Shown: positions 1-32,376, numbered from the stretch's first letter. The stretch: DNA of 32,376 nucleotides from a virus (IMGVR_UViG_3300032237_000707:1-32376), one strand, 5' to 3'. Program-made: numbers and translations. Notes: generated by a model not told the origin, from the sequence alone.

Positions 1-63
1 CCCCGACCCCAGGCTTTCTCCCCCTACGGGGTGCGGCGGTTTGGCAAAACGCGAGGTTCAACC

Positions 64-1946: not shown

Positions 1947-3680
1947 ATGTACCTGCCGATCCCGAGTCATGAGCGCGCGCGAATCGAAGAGGGCGAGCTC
2001 CGAATGAGCCTGCTCGAGGGCCGGTGGGATGGCGCCCTTCGCGAGCGCATGGGCCGGTTCTTCGCCGAGTCCGTTCGGGATCGAATCAGCTCGGCCGTCG
2101 ACATGAGCCGCGCGCCGTTCAAATACTCGATCGACGCATTGAACCTACTTTATCTCGACGCTCCGACCGTCGCGGCGGGTGACGCCGACCTGTCGCCTCT
2201 CTCCGGCGCGACCCTGTGGCCGATCCGACACCAGGCCCACCGGATCGTCCTCGGTCTCGGCGAATGCCTCATTCGGTGGGATGTATCCGAATCGGGCGGG
2301 GTGCGCCGTCTCACACATCGACTCGTTCTCCCGCACCGGTGCGAAGTCGTCACCGATCCGCGAGATCAGTTTCGGGTCCTCGTTATTCGCGAGATGATGG
2401 AGGTCCCGCAACCCGATGGTCGACACTGTCTCTACCGTGAAACGCACGATGTTCGCCCAGAAGCGCCGACGCCGTATATGGTCGAGGAGTGGGTGAGCGA
2501 TGAGTCGGGCGCGCATCAGTGGGTTGACGTGACGGCCGAACAGACACGCGGCCTCGAGGGCGGGGTTCCCTACCGTGACTCGGCCGGCGCTCAGATCATC
2601 CCCTACGCGATCCACCATCAGTACCTCGGATCGCACACCTGGCAATGGCGCGTCTGGTCTGAGCTCGTCGCGGCGCAACTGCACTCGGGATGTCTCCAGA
2701 CCTGGTTGCTTGCCGGCATTCGCGACAACGCCTATCCAACTCGGGTAGCGATTGATCTCGACATTCCGAGCGGGACGGTGATCCCCGAAGGGTCGATCGC
2801 GGGGCAGGGCGGAAGCGCCTACATCACGATCGAGCCTTCGACGATCCTCCGCATGCGAACGGCGAACACGGCGACGGGCACCGGTTCGATCGCGACTCTC
2901 GCCGCGACCATGGACCCGGCGGCGGTTTCGGGTGTGATCGCCAGCTACGTTGAGCAGGCGCTTCAAGATGCGGGGTTGGGGCCGGCGGACGAGGCACCGG
3001 CGAAGGGCGTCAGCGGACACGCGATCTCGATCTCCCGTGACGCGCTGCGTCGCAGCCAACGCCAGCAAATCCCGGCCGCCCGCCTCGGGGATCAGGTCAT
3101 GCTTGCCCTCGGCGCGCGGCTCGCAAATCGCTACCTTGGAACGGCGCTTCCCGAAGATCCGGCGGCATACTCGCTGTCCTATCACGGCATCCCTTTGTCG
3201 ACTGCCGAGGTGCAGAGCACCGTCGATCGCGTGACCCGTCTCCTCGACGCTGGCCTGATGACTCGCGCGATGGCACTCCGTGAGGTCCATCCGTACCTCT
3301 CCGAGGCGGACGCCGCCCAGCTCGCGGACGAGATCGACGGCACAAAACCCGAGCCGGTCGCCACACCGGCGCCAGCGCCGGAACCCGCGCCCGTCGAGCC
3401 GGTCGACATGGCGGCTGACGCCGAGGAGGACGCGGGCGAGGTGGGGATCTCGCCGGACATGGTTGAACAGATCCTCGAGATCGTCGAGTCCGTCGCCGAG
3501 CGTGAGATCCCGCGCGCGTCGGGTCTCGCGATCCTGACCCGGATCCTCGGCGATGACGAGGAGGCCGCCGCCCGCATGCTCGCCGACGCCGGCGCCGGTT
3601 TCGCCCCGGCCGCCGAGCCGATCAAAGTCGACGTCGCGAGCACGCAGCCGGTCGGCGTGTCGATCGCCGTCGAGGAGTAG
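1947..3680 (+). CDS. Portal protein with acidic/Pro-rich C-terminal extension (577 aa)
   Basis: Follows terL; size; C-terminal GLMTRAMALREVHP..SEADA..L motif typical of portals; GAGGG RBS. Confidence 0.78.
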   Translation: MYLPIPSHERARIEEGELRMSLLEGRWDGALRERMGRFFAESVRDRISSAVDMSRAPFKYSIDALNLLYLDAPTVAAGDADLSPLSGATLWPIRHQAHRIVLGLGECLIRWDVSESGGVRRLTHRLVLPHRCEVVTDPRDQFRVLVIREMMEVPQPDGRHCLYRETHDVRPEAPTPYMVEEWVSDESGAHQWVDVTAEQTRGLEGGVPYRDSAGAQIIPYAIHHQYLGSHTWQWRVWSELVAAQLHSGCLQTWLLAGIRDNAYPTRVAIDLDIPSGTVIPEGSIAGQGGSAYITIEPSTILRMRTANTATGTGSIATLAATMDPAAVSGVIASYVEQALQDAGLGPADEAPAKGVSGHAISISRDALRRSQRQQIPAARLGDQVMLALGARLANRYLGTALPEDPAAYSLSYHGIPLSTAEVQSTVDRVTRLLDAGLMTRAMALREVHPYLSEADAAQLADEIDGTKPEPVATPAPAPEPAPVEPVDMAADAEEDAGEVGISPDMVEQILEIVESVAEREIPRASGLAILTRILGDDEEAAARMLADAGAGFAPAAEPIKVDVASTQPVGVSIAVEE

Positions 3681-3682
3681 AC

Positions 3683-3994
3683 ATGCCAGTTCCGCCGCTC
3701 GCCGTCCGTCGCGCCGCCGCCGATGGTCTCCGACTCCGAGAGCAGTACAACCGGGGCGGGACCGAGATCGGGGTAGCTCGCGCCCGCGACCTATCGGGCG
3801 GTCGGAACGTCAGCATCGACACATTACGTCGGATGATCGCCTACTTCGATCGCCATGAGATCGACCTCGACGCACCGGCGGCCCATCGAGGGAATCCAGG
3901 ATACCCGAGCGCCGGTAAAATTGCGTGGCTTCTGTGGGGCGGAGATCCCGGCCGGGCGTGGGCGAAACGCGAGTTAGCAGCGATTGAATCTTAA
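3683..3994 (+). CDS. Conserved phage head-region protein of unknown function (103 aa)
   Basis: Motifs GGTEIGVARARDL, TLRRMIAYFDRH, PSAGKIAWLLWGG resemble a small domain I recall from head modules of environmental phages; starts 2 nt after portal stop. Confidence 0.75.
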   Translation: MPVPPLAVRRAAADGLRLREQYNRGGTEIGVARARDLSGGRNVSIDTLRRMIAYFDRHEIDLDAPAAHRGNPGYPSAGKIAWLLWGGDPGRAWAKRELAAIES

Positions 3995-21226: not shown

Positions 21227-21591
21227 CCCAGGACGACCGACTATCGGCAATCCAGGACGCGATCGGTGGACCACAAGGGATCCAGGTCCGTATCGCGGTC
21301 GCCGAGCATGAGCTCGCAGCGATATCCCAGCAGGTTGGCGACCTTCGGGTGCAGCTCCAGGAGCATCGGCAAGTGAGCAACAAGGCACATTCTGACGCGC
21401 TATCCGAGATCCGGGCAATGCGAAGCGAGTCGATCCGCCTGGACTATTCGACCGCGAAGTGGATCGGGATCGTCGTCGCCACGGTCGCGAGTCTGCTTGG
21501 GGTAGGCGGCGTTGCGGCGACTCGAGCCTCGGCGCCGATCGACGTCGAGCCGCCGCGCGCCTCGGCTACTCCCCCGGCGGCCGCGCAATAG
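21223..21591 (+). CDS. Coiled-coil plus single-TM membrane protein, holin-like (122 aa)
   Basis: GGAGG RBS; ATGA overlap with endolysin; TM segment WIGIVVATVASLLGVGGVAA. Confidence 0.55.
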   Translation: MTQDDRLSAIQDAIGGPQGIQVRIAVAEHELAAISQQVGDLRVQLQEHRQVSNKAHSDALSEIRAMRSESIRLDYSTAKWIGIVVATVASLLGVGGVAATRASAPIDVEPPRASATPPAAAQ

Positions 21592-21982
21592 CGAAGTATT
21601 TCCAGGGGATCGGCATGCTTTTTTGACCGATTCCTCGAATATAGCCTCTTTGCGTCAGTTTGACGATCCAAGCTCCGGTGGTGGTCCTGTGGAACCCGAG
21701 CCGCTCGCATATCTCGCCTTGCGTCGTGCCGGGATTCGCAGCGATGAAGGTTAAGATCTGACGGGCATGAAGTGACATGGTCTCGCGGACTGGCTTTGGG
21801 CTGCTCACTTCTTTCGGGATTTGCACCGGTTTCGCGAGGCCCATGGCTTCGACCGCGTGTTTCGCGCATAGGTCGATCCGGCCGACGCCAGGGACGTGGG
21901 TTGGCATTGCTGGCGACGCTCCGCATAGGTTGTGATCGATTCGCCGAACACACGATAGCGCGTACTTCACGTATTGCTCCAT
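21566..21982 (-). CDS. Winged-HTH protein with N-terminal Cys/His segment (138 aa)
   Basis: ILTFIAANPGTTQGEICERLGFHRTTTGAWIVKLTQRGYI is MarR-like wHTH; start codon uncertain. Confidence 0.7.
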   Translation of the reverse strand: MEQYVKYALSCVRRIDHNLCGASPAMPTHVPGVGRIDLCAKHAVEAMGLAKPVQIPKEVSSPKPVRETMSLHARQILTFIAANPGTTQGEICERLGFHRTTTGAWIVKLTQRGYIRGIGQKSMPIPWKYFAIARPPGE

Positions 21983-22164
21983 TGATCGCCGAGAAGTCGG
22001 AATGCAAGCTGTCTCCGCTCGAGTTCGGCAAGGCACGCGAACACGCGGATCAGCGGCATCCGTGCGATCGCCGAGATGATCCCCGGCGTCGGCGCGTCAA
22101 TCATGCGGAGCGCGTCACGGACGCGGTCGATCTCCATCTCGCGGCCGAGGTCAGATGTCGACAT
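21967..22164 (-). CDS. Small winged-HTH-like protein (65 aa)
   Basis: VRDALRMIDAPTPGIISAIARMPLIRVFACLAELERRQLA pattern; overlaps both neighbours. Confidence 0.5.
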   Translation of the reverse strand: MSTSDLGREMEIDRVRDALRMIDAPTPGIISAIARMPLIRVFACLAELERRQLAFRLLGDQWSNT

Positions 22165-22834
22165 CGATGTAGCCCATGCGCGCGCCAACCTCACGGAGCA
22201 ACCTCACGTCTCCCTCGCAGTAGCCACGGATACGCTCCACCTCGCCGCGCAGAAAAGCAGGGTACACCTCGGCGCCGGTAAGACCGCCCTCCTTCGCCAG
22301 GCCGAGATAGGCCCCGAGCTCGGCAAGGGGCGGCGCCTTATCGCCCCATCCGACCGACAGATCGAGCCAGTGACGCGCATACTTGTCGAGAGGACCGCCA
22401 GGCAACCGCCACCGGAGCTCCGATGTGAAGCCCTGACGGAAGGCGGCGGCTCTCAAAAAATGAAGGTCAAACAACCGATACGACGCGCACTGATGGCTGC
22501 GAGCCTCACGGATCGATTCAAAAACGGCCTCCAGGATCCGACTCTCGACGCGGTCATAGACCGTCGGATCGCTGTCGCGCATCTCGAGATCGAGATCGGT
22601 CCAACCCTCGCTCATGATGGGGCCGTCGTCGATGCACCAAGCCGCGCACAAGATCCGGCCATGAATCGGCACCAGCGACAGGCCCCGATACGTCTCGTCG
22701 CGGTCGGCGGCGATCTTCGCCGGATCAGTCAGGCGCTTGTCGCGGCGGTGAGTGAGCGCAGCGTCGAGGCCGGGCGAGGTTCGGGGTGGCGGGACCGTCT
22801 CGAGGTCGATGTAAAGCATGGTATGTCCGGTCAT
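22151..22834 (-). CDS. Stand-alone 3'-5' exonuclease, DEDDy / PolB-exo-like (227 aa)
   Basis: ExoI YIDLET, ExoII FDLHFL, ExoIII YCEGD; ATGA overlap. Confidence 0.82.
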   Translation of the reverse strand: MTGHTMLYIDLETVPPPRTSPGLDAALTHRRDKRLTDPAKIAADRDETYRGLSLVPIHGRILCAAWCIDDGPIMSEGWTDLDLEMRDSDPTVYDRVESRILEAVFESIREARSHQCASYRLFDLHFLRAAAFRQGFTSELRWRLPGGPLDKYARHWLDLSVGWGDKAPPLAELGAYLGLAKEGGLTGAEVYPAFLRGEVERIRGYCEGDVRLLREVGARMGYIDVDI

Positions 22835-23088
22835 GATGAGAGGGAGTCGTAAATCTCGGCTAGTGTTTGCCTGGGCATCGGCGCGATCGAGAACACGCAT
22901 GAAGGATAAGGAGTTCGGTAAATCTTCCCTCGCTTTGCGAGCTCACACAGGTGGGCGTAAGTCGTTGCGCGGATCATGCCGGATGCTCGCGACATCTCGG
23001 CGACAGTCATCGACCCCTCACGCGCCAGGATCTCGAGGATCAATCGGCGCCGTTCTTTCGGCTTGTACTCATACCGCCCGAAGCTCAT
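22831..23088 (-). CDS. Winged-HTH protein (85 aa)
   Basis: RRLILEILAREGSMTVAEMSRASGMIRATTYAHLCELAKRGKI; ATGA overlap with annealase gene. Confidence 0.78.
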   Translation of the reverse strand: MSFGRYEYKPKERRRLILEILAREGSMTVAEMSRASGMIRATTYAHLCELAKRGKIYRTPYPSCVFSIAPMPRQTLAEIYDSLSS

Positions 23089-23903
23089 CCGTTCGACCCC
23101 ATCTCGGGAAGGGTCCCGCGCCAAGCGTAGTACGCATCGAGTGTCGCGCCTCGACCGAGCCAACCGACGAGCGCGGCGCGCTGGTCTCGGCTCATCTGTG
23201 AGGGGCGTGGCTTGCCAAGGTGGACGAGATACGCCGCGACCTCGTCGTAATCGAGACCACGATCGCGGAGATGCGCGCAGAACCCAGGCCGATCGCCTTC
23301 CCAGCTCTGGTCATGCTCCGATGGCGCCGCGACGACCTCGACGACGACGGGCTCGGGATCGGCAGCGCGCGCGACCTCGGCGCGGACGCGTGACTTCGGT
23401 TCGGGCTTCGATTCGCCGAGCTCGTCGGGGTCGTACAACCCCATGAGCAGATCGGGGTAAACGTCCCGAGCGAGAGCGGCTTTCGCGCGCGCCCGGAGCA
23501 TCGCCGCCGGATGCTGACGCCAAGTGTCCTTCCCGACGAGCCCGGCGGCCTTTGCATCGGCCATTGAGTAGGTCAGCCGCTGTGGTTGTGGCGCACCGAC
23601 TCGATGGGTCTCGACGATCGCGTGATCCGGCGTCGACTCGATCGTCGAGAAGTACGCGCAAACATCCTTGCGACCGAGACATACGGCGACCATGCCGTCG
23701 GCGCTCATCGTCGGGCGGCCGCTGACAACATGGAAGGCCCGGAGAGCCTGTGTATAGCTCAGGCCGAGATCGCGCCCGGCCATGGTCAGCATGAGCGCCT
23801 GGGTCGGGTTCTTTGCCCCGAAGAAGCCGGAATCAGCGGCGTCCTTGGCGAATGCTCGCAGTTCGGACATGTCGCGCGGGACAATGACGGGGAGATCGGA
23901 CAT
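23085..23903 (-). CDS. RecT/Red-beta-like single-strand annealing protein (272 aa)
   Basis: GRDLGLSYTQAL..FHVVSGRP and W..HP.AMLRARA....ARDVYPDLLMGLY..DE motifs; GGAGG RBS. Confidence 0.8.
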   Translation of the reverse strand: MSDLPVIVPRDMSELRAFAKDAADSGFFGAKNPTQALMLTMAGRDLGLSYTQALRAFHVVSGRPTMSADGMVAVCLGRKDVCAYFSTIESTPDHAIVETHRVGAPQPQRLTYSMADAKAAGLVGKDTWRQHPAAMLRARAKAALARDVYPDLLMGLYDPDELGESKPEPKSRVRAEVARAADPEPVVVEVVAAPSEHDQSWEGDRPGFCAHLRDRGLDYDEVAAYLVHLGKPRPSQMSRDQRAALVGWLGRGATLDAYYAWRGTLPEMGSNG

Positions 23904-23904
23904 A

Positions 23905-24003
23905 TCAATAGCCTCCGGTGAGGTGGATAAACAGGTGACATATGAGGGCGGTCGTTGGGGTGGCGATGAGAACGAAGCCGAGTAGATCGTCAAAGCGTCG
24001 CAT
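23905..24003 (-). CDS. Small hydrophobic protein (32 aa), not in ORF track
   Basis: MRRFDDLLGFVLIATPTTALICHLFIHLTGGY; GGAG 6 nt upstream; stop 1 nt before annealase ATG. Confidence 0.5.
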   Translation of the reverse strand: MRRFDDLLGFVLIATPTTALICHLFIHLTGGY

Positions 24004-24010
24004 GATGGCT

Positions 24011-24058
24011 CCAAACGCGCGCCCCTGAGAATACCCGGCAGGGGCGCGCGCGGTTTGG
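24011..24058 (-). terminator. GC-rich hairpin between first and second leftward genes
   Basis: CGCGCGCCCCTG 24016-24027 / CAGGGGCGCGCG 24039-24050, perfect 12-bp stem; TTTGG follows on the - strand. Confidence 0.55.
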
Positions 24059-24421: not shown

Positions 24422-24558
24422 CACATACTCCCCCCTGGCGATGAGTGCAAGTGTATGCACGAACATTCGTGCGAATAGCTGCACACGCGGCATTGATCCT
24501 ATACGATTCGGGTATATGCGTGCGATAGGTTGCACAGACTGTGCAGCGGGGATACAGT
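24422..24558. promoter_or_regulatory. Divergent promoters with palindromic operator candidates
   Basis: Rightward TTGCAC(24530-35)-N17-TACAGT(24553-58); leftward TTGCAC(24450-45)-N17-TATGTG; palindromes TGCACAG-a-CTGTGCA 24531-24545 and GCACGAA-ca-TTCGTGC 24457-24472. Confidence 0.65.
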
Positions 24559-28497: not shown

Positions 28498-29561
28498 TCT
28501 TTGGCTCCGTTTGTTCCGGCATTGAAGCGGCTTCGGTGGCGTGGCATCCGTTGGGGTGGCGCGCGGCATGGTTTGCGGAGATTGCCCCGTTCCCAAGCGC
28601 CGTGCTCGCTCATCGGTGGCCAACGGTTCCAAACCGTGGCGATTTTACGACCATAGGGGGAGACGATGCAATTGTCGATGTTCTCATCGGTGGAACGCCG
28701 TGTCAGAGCTTCAGTGTCGCCGGATTGCGCGGCGGTCTGGATGACGAACGCGGCGCCCTCACCCTTGAATATCTCCGACTGGTTGACCGCATACGGCCTC
28801 GGTGGGTCGTCTGGGAGAACGTTGCCGGTGTCCTGTCAACGGACGGCGGACGGGCGTTTGGAGCCTTCCTCGGGGGTCTGGAGAAACTCGGGTATGGGTG
28901 GGCCTATCGAGTCCTGGACGCTCAATACTTCGGAGTCGCCCAACGTCGTCGCCGAGTGTTCGTTGTCGCGCACGCTCGAGGCGCCTGGCAGCGTGCCGGG
29001 GCAGTACTATTTGAGCCCGCGAGCTTGTTTGGGGATCCTGCGGCGAGCAGAAGCGCGCGGCCGCGTGTTGCCGTTGACGCTCGCCGAAGCGCTGACAAGG
29101 GTAGCATCGCGCGAACCTTGACAACAAGCGGGCAACGTTTTGACGCGGATTCCGACACGTTCGTCGTTGATGTGTTGCCGTTTGACACTACACAGGTGAC
29201 ATCACGGGGTAACTATTCTGCTCCGAGGGTGGGCGATCCTTGTCATCCGCTCGCGGCCAGGGCTCACGCGCCCGCTATCTGCTTCAACGCTCGCCAGAAT
29301 CCAGACATCACCGGCGACATTTCGGACTGCCTCGGTGCGCAGGACAGAGGCCACGCCGTCCTTGCCGACACTGCGATCCGGAGGCTGACGCCGCGAGAAT
29401 GCGAACGGCTACAAGGCTTCCCCGATGATCACACGCTCGTACCCTATCGCGGGAAGCTGGCGGCTGATGGACCCCGCTATGCTGCGATCGGAAACTCCAT
29501 GGCCGTTCCGGTGATTCGATGGATTGGCGAGCGGATCGCCGCCGCCGACGCCGAGCCGTGA
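28494..29561 (+). CDS. C5-cytosine DNA methyltransferase (355 aa)
   Basis: Motifs I (SVCSGIEA), IV (GTPCQ), VI (WENV), VIII (QRRRR), IX (RRLTPRECERLQGFPD), X (GNSM). Confidence 0.93.
   Translation: MIFGSVCSGIEAASVAWHPLGWRAAWFAEIAPFPSAVLAHRWPTVPNRGDFTTIGGDDAIVDVLIGGTPCQSFSVAGLRGGLDDERGALTLEYLRLVDRIRPRWVVWENVAGVLSTDGGRAFGAFLGGLEKLGYGWAYRVLDAQYFGVAQRRRRVFVVAHARGAWQRAGAVLFEPASLFGDPAASRSARPRVAVDARRSADKGSIARTLTTSGQRFDADSDTFVVDVLPFDTTQVTSRGNYSAPRVGDPCHPLAARAHAPAICFNARQNPDITGDISDCLGAQDRGHAVLADTAIRRLTPRECERLQGFPDDHTLVPYRGKLAADGPRYAAIGNSMAVPVIRWIGERIAAADAEP
28666..29121 (+). CDS. Embedded alternative-frame gene, M.EcoHK31I beta-subunit-like (151 aa)
   Basis: +1 frame inside the C5 MTase; GGGGAG RBS; SLSRTLE...YYLSPRACLGILRRAEARGRVLP motif. 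Confidence 0.7.
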   Translation: MQLSMFSSVERRVRASVSPDCAAVWMTNAAPSPLNISDWLTAYGLGGSSGRTLPVSCQRTADGRLEPSSGVWRNSGMGGPIESWTLNTSESPNVVAECSLSRTLEAPGSVPGQYYLSPRACLGILRRAEARGRVLPLTLAEALTRVASREP

Positions 29562-29586
29562 CCATTCGGGCTCGCGGCGGTACAAT
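29558..29586 (+). promoter_or_regulatory. Sigma70-like promoter
   Basis: GTGACC(29558-63)-N17-TACAAT(29581-86). Confidence 0.5.
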
Positions 29587-29604
29587 GTGGCGAGGAGACC
29601 CGCC

Positions 29605-29862
29605 ATGACCGATCACGATCGCCCGATGGGAAAGAGCACGCTAGCCGTCGAGAAACAGAAGCTGATCCTGGAACAACGCAAGATCGAGCTCGCCGCCGAG
29701 GACCGCGCCAGGGATGACAGGCGGGCGATGATCCGGCAGATCCTCGCCGTCGTCGCCCTGCTCGCGGCGCTCGCTCTCGTCGGGGCGGCGCTGTATTGGG
29801 GACGGGCGTTCTCGTTCTCGGGGCTCGGGATCGAGGCAACGACCGGAGGTGCGCATGAGTGA
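29605..29862 (+). CDS. Single-pass membrane protein (85 aa)
   Basis: GAGGAG RBS; charged helix then ILAVVALLAALALVGAALYW. Confidence 0.7.
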   Translation: MTDHDRPMGKSTLAVEKQKLILEQRKIELAAEDRARDDRRAMIRQILAVVALLAALALVGAALYWGRAFSFSGLGIEATTGGAHE

Positions 29863-30328
29863 GCTACATATCTACGATTTCGATGCGACGCTGTATCGCA
29901 GCCCCGGGCCGCCAGAAGGTCAACCCGCCAGCGAATGGTGGGACAGTCCGGTCAGCCTGGACGGCGTCGGTCGTGCCGGATTCGATGATGGGTGGCGCAT
30001 GAACATCGTGCGCGACGCTCGCGAATCCATCGCTGACCCAGATGTCGAGGCCGTTGTGATCACCGGCCGGCGTCGGTTCGCTGGGATGACGAGGGCCGTC
30101 GAGCGGGCGCTCTCGCTCGCGGGCCTTCGATTCGACGACGTGATCTTGCGCCCCATGACCTCGACAGGAGACGTCTCCGCGTGGAAGGCCGCCGAGGTCG
30201 GTCGCCTGCTCGCAGGGATTGACGGGGCTGAGAAGGTCAAGATGTACGACGACAACTCAGATAACCTCCGGGCTGTGCGGGCGGTTGTCGAGCGCGCCGG
30301 CCTTGCGTTTGTCGCCAGCTCGCGGTAG
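29855..30328 (+). CDS. HAD-superfamily phosphatase, HAD_SAK/Pnkp-like (157 aa)
   Basis: IYDFDATL (motif I), ITGR (II), WK (III), YDD (IV); GGAGG RBS. Confidence 0.82.
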   Translation: MSELHIYDFDATLYRSPGPPEGQPASEWWDSPVSLDGVGRAGFDDGWRMNIVRDARESIADPDVEAVVITGRRRFAGMTRAVERALSLAGLRFDDVILRPMTSTGDVSAWKAAEVGRLLAGIDGAEKVKMYDDNSDNLRAVRAVVERAGLAFVASSR

Positions 30329-30331
30329 GGT
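30303..30331 (+). promoter_or_regulatory. Sigma70-like promoter upstream of VapE leader
   Basis: TTGCGT(30303-08)-N17-TAGGGT(30326-31). Confidence 0.45.
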
Positions 30332-30337
30332 GTTAGG

Positions 30338-30404
30338 GCCTCCTCGGCGCCGGAGTCATGATCCGGCCGCGTCGCCCCATCACGGGGCGGCGCTCCGAGA
30401 AGGC
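30338..30404 (+). ncRNA. Structured 5' leader (three-way junction) of VapE-like gene
   Basis: P1 30338-47/30395-404 (9 of 10 bp); P2 GCCGGA-gtcatga-TCCGGC; P3 GCGTCGCCCC-atcac-GGGGCGGCGC. Confidence 0.65.
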
Positions 30405-30420
30405 GAGACGAGGAGATAGC

Positions 30421-31935
30421 ATGACAGACCAACAGCCGGGCGACATCGCCCTCGGCGCGGCGCGTTCGCTCGTCGCGACGATACGATTACCCAGCGCGGA
30501 CTATACCGCCGCCGTCCGCGCATTCCTGGCCGCTCCGGGCGTCGCCGAGGACCTCGAGTACCTTGGCGAGCGCAAGGGGTGGCGCGAGCTCTCTGCCGAG
30601 CTGCGACTCGTCCCAGTCGTGTGGCGGGCGTTGTCGCCGCTGGTCAGGCCGAGACGACCGAGGGCAGACAAGCCAGCGCGGATCGACATCGCGGTCGAGC
30701 GCGCGATGAGTCCCGACATCTCCGGCGAGGGCGCCGTCGTCGGGCTGCTCCAGCGCGGCCGACCTCGCGAGGATGGTGGCGCGGCGCCGATCATTCGGAA
30801 CGGCTACAACCTCGGGATCATCCTCGGACATGACAGCCGGTGGCGAGGTCGAATCCGGCTCAATGAGTTTCGGTCCGACGAGGAGATCCGCGACGGCGAC
30901 CGATGGCGCGGCATCACCGACGTGGACGCGATCGAGATCGGGCGGTGGGTCTCGGAGCACTACCGACTCGATTACCAGACGGCGACGGTACATGAACAGC
31001 TCGTCGCGCTCGCTCATCGACAGCGAGCTCATCCCGTGCGTGACTACCTGCAGGCCCTGCTCTGGGACGGGGCGAAGCGCATGGACTCATGGCTCGGGGA
31101 CGTGTTCGGCGTCGAGCCGACCGTCGGCGCACATCGCGTCGGGCGTGCGTGGCTTATTTCGATGGTCGCGCGCATCATGGGCCCAGGCTGCAAGGTCGAC
31201 ACGGTCCCGATCTTGATCGGGAAGCAAGGGCTCCGAAAGTCGACGACGCTCCGGGCGATGATGCCGGATGCAACGTGGTTTAGCGACAGCGATATCCCGC
31301 TGCATCATTCCCAGGACAAGTATCAGGTCATTCAAGGCGTCTGGTTGTACGAGATCGCCGAGTTTGACCGATTCACGAGCAAGGCCGACGCCGCCGAGGT
31401 CAAGGCCTATGTGAGCTCGCAGCGGGACACGTTCCGGCGTTCGCACGGCCGGCGGGTCGCCAGCGTCGATCGTCAAGTGGTGTTTGCGGGCTCGACGAAT
31501 GCGGCCGAGTTCCTGGTCGATCCGACGGGTTCGAGGCGCTACTGGCCTCTCGTCTGCTCGCAGGCTGACCCGGATGTGATGCACCGGATCCGCGACCAGC
31601 TCTGGGCGGAGGCCGTCGCGGCCTATGAGGCTGGCGAATCGTGGTGGCTGTCGTCCGAGGTCGCCGCCGAGGTCGCCGAGATGGCTGACGCATTCCGGGT
31701 CGGCGACCCATGGGATGAGCCGCTCGGAGCGTGGCTCGCCGAGCACACCGCGACCGCTCGGATGTCGGGGCTGATCATGGCCGACATTCTGGCCGACGCA
31801 TGCGGCACCCCGATCGGGGTGGCGACGAAGCGGGAACAAGGGCGGGCGGGCGCCATTATGGTCAGGCTGGGGTGGGTGAAGAAGAAGCGGAAACACGACG
31901 TCCGGTGGTTCCCGCCGGTAGGTGGACACCTATGA
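30421..31935 (+). CDS. VapE (virulence-associated E)-family P-loop ATPase/helicase (504 aa)
   Basis: HPVRDYL, PGCKVD, Walker A GKQGLRKST, YEIAE, GSTN, DPTGSRRYW; GAGGAG RBS. Confidence 0.88.
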   Translation: MTDQQPGDIALGAARSLVATIRLPSADYTAAVRAFLAAPGVAEDLEYLGERKGWRELSAELRLVPVVWRALSPLVRPRRPRADKPARIDIAVERAMSPDISGEGAVVGLLQRGRPREDGGAAPIIRNGYNLGIILGHDSRWRGRIRLNEFRSDEEIRDGDRWRGITDVDAIEIGRWVSEHYRLDYQTATVHEQLVALAHRQRAHPVRDYLQALLWDGAKRMDSWLGDVFGVEPTVGAHRVGRAWLISMVARIMGPGCKVDTVPILIGKQGLRKSTTLRAMMPDATWFSDSDIPLHHSQDKYQVIQGVWLYEIAEFDRFTSKADAAEVKAYVSSQRDTFRRSHGRRVASVDRQVVFAGSTNAAEFLVDPTGSRRYWPLVCSQADPDVMHRIRDQLWAEAVAAYEAGESWWLSSEVAAEVAEMADAFRVGDPWDEPLGAWLAEHTATARMSGLIMADILADACGTPIGVATKREQGRAGAIMVRLGWVKKKRKHDVRWFPPVGGHL

Positions 31936-32207
31936 TGGGGTGTCCACCGGGGGTGTCCACCCAAAAGTGTGCGGTCTACCTATATGGTGGACAGGTGGAC
32001 ACCTGTGGACACCTACACGCACACATAAGAGAGATCTGGTGTGTGGCGCGCGCGCACACACGACAACACACACGCCCTGCAAGTACGCCGGAGGTGTCCA
32101 CACCTGTCCACCCTCAGCGCAAACGTAGCAACACAGCCGACGATCGCGCGTTGAGGGGGTGTCCACTGAGGTGTCCACCGGGGTGTCCACCGAGTAGGGG
32201 TGTCCAC
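31922..32207. repeat. Iteron-like array, putative replication origin
   Basis: 12 copies of core TGTCCAC/GTGGACA in both orientations at the 3' end of and downstream of the VapE gene. Confidence 0.8.
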
Positions 32208-32376
32208 CTCGAAGAGGAACGCATGACCGGAGGTAGCATGATCGTAGGTTGCACCGACCTTGTTAGCCCTGCTCGCACGCGCGCGCGGGGCGGTCGTGCG
32301 TCGAAGTGTAGGGTGTACCTACGCTATAACGCATGCACGGGGGTATCCCCCTTTTGTCACGGCCCGGGCCCCGACC

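Follow-up and report, generated by a model that had tools for sequence, protein, structure and literature searches.

A predicted two-state leader RNA with a palindromic loop upstream of a putative phage initiator-helicase gene

The 92-nt gap (30329-30420) in front of the ATG of a vapE-family gene in this virus raises the question of whether the RNA transcribed from it controls the gene downstream, and by what means. A first-pass annotation of the window, by which we mean the whole virus record of 32,376 bases (65% G+C), had read the gap as an undescribed translational switch controlling replication, built on a riboswitch-like three-way junction. Our analysis upholds an undescribed leader able to mask the Shine-Dalgarno (SD) sequence, together with its promoter and its lack of an Rfam match, but not the loop-loop kiss, the pairing of a loop with the start codon or the likeness to riboswitches.

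The vapE module and its genome

The structural model of the vapE product (pLDDT 81.9) had SaPI1 Rep (7PDS) as its best Foldseek match (E 4e-27, TM ~0.6). According to the accessible text of PMC9371898, SaPI Reps are initiator-helicases with 6-12 iterons right 3' of the gene, and the vapE module matches SaPI1 Rep/ori (7PDS; PMC9371898) both in fold and in the 12 two-orientation repeats that follow the gene. By analogy with this fold and layout, vapE likely encodes an initiator-helicase whose origin lies directly downstream. SaPI-type modules have a primase gene fused to rep or upstream of it; here no Prim-Pol gene was found (PF09250, 0/3 genomes), and the module belongs to a phage with head and tail genes rather than to a satellite. 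An AT-rich centre is a further trait of SaPI-type origins, and bins of 20 nt in the origin region reach 0.5-0.6 A+T, compared with 0.35 genome-wide. The Rep-like fold and the iteron-like repeats speak for the leader mechanism proposed below. The origin region also contains an alternating GT/GC/AC inverted repeat (window 32037-32074, also in G001) that could extrude a hairpin.

Two IMG/VR relatives, G001 (29.2 kb) and G002 (33.5 kb), are collinear with the window. Identical 8 bases stand at both ends of all three genomes (window 1-8 and 32369-32376), and a fourth contig, L127, also ends in them. The recurrence of these terminal bases in three genomes suggests fixed, cos-like ends and near-complete genomes, despite CheckV completeness values of 39, 97 and 43% for the window, G001 and G002; presumably the 8 bases resemble the lambda cos sequence. 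Tyrosine integrase, serine resolvase, ParA-type ATPase and Prim-Pol families were each found in none of the three genomes.

Several other features of these genomes were recorded. A large conserved gene (ORFs 1947-3680 and 3683-3994) is interrupted at window ~3336-3667 by ~330 bases that are absent from G001 and G002, possibly an intron or other insertion. The left operon (21566-24014, minus strand) carries MarR-type HTH, 3'-5' exonuclease and RecT-like genes. Between its genes lies a strong hairpin (~24010-24055), possibly a second regulatory RNA, whose stem differs in G001 and G002 and whose loop core GAATACC is retained. The palindrome GCACGAACATTCGTGC (~24455-24475) occupies a divergent promoter region, is kept in three genomes and is likely an operator; nearby are a Cro-like HTH gene and, at 24530, the promoter-like TTGCAC-17-TACAGT. 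GATC occurs 401 times in the window against 105 expected from base composition (~4x over-represented), and two methyltransferases are encoded. G002 has QueC-like and weakly TGT-like genes and a D12-class methyltransferase, none of them seen in the window (L258:5663-6828; L259:13124-14086).

A protein search returned ten vapE homologues of 72-93% identity, all sharing the start Met, after which identity falls to ~50%. The leader was present in all four relatives for which DNA was obtained, and we compared five leaders (window, L001, L126, L127 and L129), leaving about 20 further close homologues aside; contigs from six sequencing runs supplied extra variants. Leader identity (0.74-0.90) exceeded that of the first 300 coding bases (0.62-0.76) in 4/4 comparisons. 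The in-frame ATG at 30358, raised earlier as a possible translation start, is not the start, an in-frame upstream start being present in only one of the five leaders.

The promoter-like site in front of the leader, with its 17-nt spacer, is where the first-pass annotation placed it (Table 1). It is one of 12 relaxed-pattern matches on both window strands and was missed by a strict scan. The relatives have TTGACG (L001 and L126) or TGGACA (L129) as the -35-like hexamer and TATGCT or TAGACT as the -10-like hexamer, the latter at the same 6-nt distance from P1. Thus a TAnnnT hexamer, a pattern matching 0.3% of background positions, ends 6 nt 5' of P1 in all four leaders with upstream sequence despite differing upstream DNA (three contexts), and a TTG- or TGG-type -35 stands 17-18 nt from each. 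Homology sets in exactly at 30338 in blastn comparisons with L001 and G002, and 5/6 sequencing runs (X3-X7) show the same onset as loose ends. By these sequence comparisons the transcript likely starts at or near 30338, the P1 5' end, as had been proposed. Shortly 5' of the leader, a small membrane-protein-like gene (29558-29862) with its own promoter-like GTGACC-17-TACAAT is present in all four contigs that reach that far.

Table 1. Coordinates of the leader and neighbouring features in the window.
Feature	Position	Strand	Evidence or remark
HAD-family ORF upstream of leader	29849..30328	+	PF10307; absent from G001 and G002; context
-35-like hexamer TTGCGT	30303..30308	+	relaxed-pattern match
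-10-like hexamer TAGGGT	30326..30331	+	overlaps stop of upstream HAD gene
5' switching strand	30338..30347	+	anti-SD core CUCCUCG, 30340-30346; co-varies with both partners
P2 hairpin, 6-bp stem, 7-nt loop GUCAUGA	30349..30367	+	arms 30349-54/30362-67; 30/30 cells paired
Palindromic loop hexamer UCAUGA, predicted self-dimerisation (kissing) site	30356..30361	+	covariation, duplex energies
P3 hairpin, 10 bp, invariant core and loop AUCAC	30369..30393	+	arms 30369-78/30384-93, one U-G pair; 50/50 cells paired
P1 3' arm, ON partner of 5' strand	30395..30404	+	9/10 pairs with 30338-47, one C-A mismatch; mismatch always present
SD arm CGAGGAG, OFF partner of 5' strand	30409..30415	+	always perfect Watson-Crick complement
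vapE-family gene, 504 aa, predicted SaPI-Rep-like initiator-helicase	30421..31935	+	PF05272, E 8e-70
12 iteron-like repeats, core TGTCCAC, likely replication origin	31922..32207	both orientations	none elsewhere in window

Two competing folds of the leader

All helices and complementarities that had been described for the window are present (Table 1), so that the question became whether the competition of the P1 arm and the SD arm for the 5' strand is kept in relatives. The 5' strand and SD arm read CUCCUCG/CGAGGAG in the window and L001, CUCCCUG/CAGGGAG in L126, CUCCCG/CGGGAG in L127 and CUCCCGG/CCGGGAG in L129, giving an anti-SD helix of 6-7 bp in which 34/34 pairs across the five leaders are Watson-Crick. 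The P1 arm tracks the same 5'-strand changes by compensatory and G-U changes, with at least one mismatch in 5/5 leaders; a run contig with the 5' strand of the window has its P1 mismatch at another position (read by eye). Since the 5' strand co-varies with both partners in all five leaders, the two alternative folds are very probably under selection and the leader is, to judge by its sequence, a two-state element able to mask the SD. Pairs of P1 and the SD arm were counted by anchors, as automatic alignment misregisters both, and the shuffle test below covers the other pairs.

Across the five leaders P2 and P3 kept 80/80 pair cells, some as G-U. In P3 two pairs alternate between Watson-Crick and G-U around a core and loop that are invariant in 5/5, and in the P2 stem one pair is changed on both sides and one goes from A-U to G-U. 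G-U pairs are tolerated on the + strand in P1, P2 and P3, and the z-score is lower on the + strand in 5/5 leaders (- strand z -2.1 to -2.9). When the covariation analysis, including the loop self-pairs, was repeated on shuffles of this sample of five assembled and related leaders, the score was reached in 1/500 and the count of doubly changed pairs in 167/500.

The minimum free energy (MFE) structure of the window leader is the P1 fold (-50), and its centroid is the SD-paired fold (-48.7). The leader is stable (z = -3.17, with 1/200 shuffles as stable), but 6/216 genome windows lie below its z of -3.52 and stability alone is not exceptional; it is conservation and covariation in four other contigs that lift it above chance. 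ON and OFF come within 1.3-2.3 kcal/mol of each other when P2 and P3 are constrained. In simulated chain growth P1 dominated (0.82-0.98) until the SD arm emerged, after which anti-SD pairing reached 0.74-1.0 in 5/5 leaders; a rough path estimate puts the ON-to-OFF barrier at 11-13 kcal/mol. The monomer MFE of L126 and L129 is an OFF rod with P2 melted and the SD locked (-53.2 versus -45.2 for ON, and -48.8 versus -41.4 for ON). The corresponding P2 probability is 0.0 in L126 and 0.47 in L129; for the window, L001 and L127 it is 0.99-1.0 whichever state is formed. Predicted SD access at vapE (0.39) is mid-range among 22 gene starts in the window (0.02-0.87; one start off register).

Three other functions were considered and rejected. 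An RNA thermometer is at odds with window SD access of 0.14 to 0.37 over 10-55 C and no change in L126 or L129. phi29 pRNA is a packaging RNA, and a comparable role was set aside because the SD arm co-varies. P3 is no classical terminator, as only 1-2 U follow it in place of a U run. In unrelated contigs (L214, L219 and L228-L230) the P3 core hairpin precedes T runs in a terminator-like manner.

Searches for known or further members agree that the leader is undescribed. Rfam gave no match at gathering score over the window and three chance matches (12.8-14.2 bits) at E up to 10, and the Rfam models for the purine riboswitch and P1/P7 C4 had no match in the window. blastn of the leader returned nothing in phages and two short chance matches in plasmids. 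Viral contigs were scanned for the pattern three times: an overly loose version gave 120 loci without a leader, and two later versions gave 23 loci apiece, among which the two relatives already known were the sole true leaders. A covariance model limited to the pairs of P2 and P3 recovered no leader other than the five it was trained on from 91, 80 and 5 sources and from four whole genomes, the best outside score being 22.4 bits against 91-104 for the training leaders. A 401-genome sample of one phylum yielded distant vapE genes only.

The palindromic loop of P2

The first-pass annotation missed the palindromic nature of the P2 loop, which is kept through paired changes. In 5/5 leaders the loop consists of one 5' base and a palindromic hexamer: UCAUGA, UAGCUA (twice), UGAUCA or UUGCAA. 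The extra base (G in three leaders, C in two) is always on the 5' side and never on the 3' side. Loop self-pair cells are kept in 15/15 cases across four distinct palindromes; every one of the four Watson-Crick combinations is found at one position pair, and the neighbouring bases at the centre are AU in some leaders and GC in others. UGAUCA recurs in contigs of four runs from two studies in a window-like background, where two more stem pairs are changed on both sides. The iteron-like repeat is clade-specific, with GGTGTCCAC in the window versus GGTGTGCAT/GGTGGCCAT downstream of vapE in L127 and L129. As the P2 loop varies within each clade while the repeat is clade-wise, loop type appears to change faster than origin type.

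Palindromes make up 10% of T....A hexamers in the window and occur in one of 103 predicted 7-nt loops, namely the P2 loop itself. They occur upstream of 1/147 distant vapE genes (3/149 with the two relatives included). If changes are independent, three further palindromes would arise by chance with a probability of ~0.001. All four hexamers contain two G-C pairs (p ~0.04 under a uniform draw), and 63/97 comparable palindromes in the window contain four. Their self-duplex energies lie between -4.5 and -5.1, with cross-duplexes at -2.0 or weaker. The predicted gain from P2 homodimerisation is 10.2-12.4 kcal/mol and that from heterodimerisation 0-5.7, an order that follows by construction from any palindrome.

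Because adjacent central bases are unable to pair within one chain, their paired swaps point to two molecules. The same argument was made for OLE RNA, where, in the accessible part of PMC12286853, palindrome switching that includes the adjacent central bases argues for an intermolecular kiss and cryo-EM shows it. The loop hexamer of G001 occurs once in that genome, in P2 itself, so its sole full partner would be another copy of the leader; neither a second leader copy nor a co-varying partner hairpin was found in the three genomes. On this sequence evidence the P2 loops of two leaders probably kiss, the loop thereby dimerising with itself.

The partners that had been proposed for this loop fared less well. 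A UGAU/AUCA kiss between the P2 and P3 loops has duplex energies of -1.3 to +1.6 kcal/mol across the five leaders and is not conserved. GUCAUG does complement CAUGAC over the start codon (30420-25), but this pairing is strong only in the window; L126 shares this start region but has another P2 loop, so the pairing is not specific to a leader's own start.

Could the palindrome serve something other than self-dimerisation? A tight intramolecular loop is argued against by the swap from AU to GC of adjacent central bases that cannot pair in one fold. A DNA site for a dimeric protein fits poorly, since the symmetry axis of the stem arms is offset from that of the hexamer by half a base, the extra base always lying 5'; the P2 arms moreover tolerate G-U. 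A methylase site would suit phages that carry variable methyltransferases. Against it, the ORFs scanned in G001 gave no methyltransferase match, although G001 has the same loop as L126, where the end of a methylase-like gene lies upstream (compared by eye with the gene in the window).

Proposed mechanism, alternatives and precedents

In the mechanism we propose, transcription would start at ~30338 and the 5' strand would choose between the P1 arm, which leaves the SD free (ON), and the SD arm (OFF). According to the computed folding P1 would form first, as its arm is transcribed before the SD arm, and the full leader would then favour OFF, making ON a transient window. The P2 loops of two leaders would kiss through 6 bp, extendable to an 18-bp duplex. 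In the last and weakest step, dimerisation would open P1 and let the 5' strand choose again, so that ON-to-OFF conversion is sped by leader concentration; with linkers of 1 nt, the extended duplex excludes a P1 closed within one molecule. The initiator would thereby come under negative feedback that acts among phages with the same palindrome. That the leader switches the initiator ribosome binding site in this way, the self-pairing loop shutting translation as message accumulates, is a tentative reading of sequence and models to which we give slightly less than an even chance. The broader proposal that dimerisation sets initiator-helicase translation in either direction, with the palindrome as a self/non-self code between related phages, we regard as evenly balanced. 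A plasmid-like state that would need copy control finds no support, as no ParA-type gene was found in the three genomes.

Nearest-neighbour models gave equal SD access in monomer and homodimer for 5/5 leaders (window 0.25-0.34 in both), and a short 5' fragment did not close the SD in the model either. With access equal at equilibrium, dimerisation could reach the SD only by kinetic or steric means. Kissing and crossed pairings lie outside what such models describe, and kinetic coupling is therefore neither supported nor ruled out by this result. Strand exchange between the two tandem repeats may be fast without any partner.

The unaltered SD access also suits a folding timer, or a leader flipped by a protein, be it the helicase or a phage regulator bound to the P3 loop, with the palindrome serving one of the roles discussed above or a dimerisation that has no bearing on the SD. 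The P3 core and loop, invariant in 5/5, are what would be expected of a protein site. We nevertheless consider this explanation unlikely, as it leaves the equal duplex strength of all four loop variants unexplained and its DNA-site, methylase and intramolecular forms meet the objections given above.

Dimerisation could also act in the opposite direction: the monomer would be SD-locked, and a P2 dimer would stabilise the P1-P2-P3 junction and open the SD, switching replication on cooperatively above a threshold of genomes. The P2-melting, SD-locking rod of L126 and L129 fits this direction better than shut-off by a dimer, and IsrK activates translation on its own longer transcript, as the accessible text of PMC4825925 describes it. 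In the window, L001 and L127, however, P2 stands in both states, and dimer models leave the SD unopened in L126 and L129. We hold this direction to be less likely still than a timer or protein.

Control of the pT181 or pSK41 type, in which a counter-transcribed antisense RNA would flip the leader by kissing its P2 and P3 loops and the variable loop would set incompatibility, appears very improbable. A variable loop combined with alternative folds 5' of an initiator is the hallmark of such systems in the part of PMC5703833 available to us, and the - strand also folds well at the z-scores given above. However, opposite-strand TAnnnT hexamers number 2, 1, 0, 0 and 0 in the five loci at unrelated positions, none of them conserved, and a scan found no opposite-strand terminator at the leader. 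Pairing with an antisense RNA, moreover, needs no palindromic loop.

Least probable of all is a metabolite riboswitch with a kissing three-way junction: such a junction does stand where the transcript would begin, and it competes at nearly the same energy with a fold that sequesters the SD, but purine riboswitches form their ligand pocket from a conserved multi-nucleotide junction and have two kissing hairpin loops, whereas here the junctions are 1, 1 and 1-4 nt without a conserved pocket, the P2/P3 kiss is not conserved and Rfam gave only the three chance matches.

Returning to the self-pairing leader, its closest precedents are described here as far as the accessible portions of the cited papers go. 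HIV-1 DIS, oskar (PMC7357161) and OLE L9.3 (PMC12286853) have a six-base loop palindrome like that of P2, and conversion to an extended duplex is possible both in DIS-type loops and here. In contrast to DIS, the P2 loop has one flanking base (G or C) in place of unpaired flanking purines, its variants are weak (two G-C pairs), and it sits in a phage mRNA leader with an anti-SD switch and no evident packaging role. The rep leaders of pT181, pIP501 and pSK41 (PMC5703833) likewise place alternative folds 5' of an initiator, with a variable loop able to set specificity. They are controlled by an antisense RNA, whereas the predicted partner here is a second copy of the same strand, and a consensus scan found no conserved counter-transcript promoter and no attenuator terminator.

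Among phage RNAs, Gifsy-1 IsrK and P4 CI/seqA-seqC (PMC4825925) resemble the leader in acting on their own transcript, with one segment, two partners and near-isoenergetic folds that govern the RBS or replication genes. Here, however, the 5' strand precedes both of its partners, the palindromic loop would provide recognition, and with 1-2 U after P3 there is no terminator-like site for a short isoform. P1/P7 C4 (PMC5320573), which RNase P processes to a ~77-nt RNA, is about as large as the leader and, like the ON fold in 5/5 leaders, forms a three-stem cloverleaf that exposes two loops; its loops complement co-varying target sites, one of them over an RBS. The leader differs in that its own loops have no co-varying targets (in G001, no paired loop target site outside the leader's own opposite strand) and its SD is masked by a 5' stem strand rather than a loop. 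ARRPOF RNA (PMC12990946), which is bacterial, linked to replicon maintenance and forms domain-swapped homodimers, can be likened to the leader, but it is 255 nt long with pseudoknots, no SD switch is described for it in the accessible text, and the leader has no Rfam match.

A literature search, mostly of freely readable main texts, found no case in bacteria or phages of an mRNA leader under the control of its own dimerisation; the motif might be listed in motif catalogues (PMC8040213, PMC5737381, PMC2864571) or in phage RNA surveys outside Rfam. By analogy, the leader would work like an antisense-controlled rep leader whose partner is replaced by self, with a geometry like that of DIS-type loops.

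To our knowledge, wherever an RNA controls a replication initiator it is a separate antisense RNA, and the palindromic kissing loops described so far act in packaging, in localisation or in assembling large RNAs. If dimerisation is coupled to ribosome access, the message would itself sense how concentrated it is. Whether natural RNA multimers matter biologically is mostly unresolved according to the accessible text of a 2026 review (PMC12990946), and an 86-nt element with four natural, non-cross-pairing loop variants and a translational read-out would make that question cheap to address. If the mechanism proves true, these phages would sense their own number, controlling copy number or multiplicity without an antisense gene or a protein.
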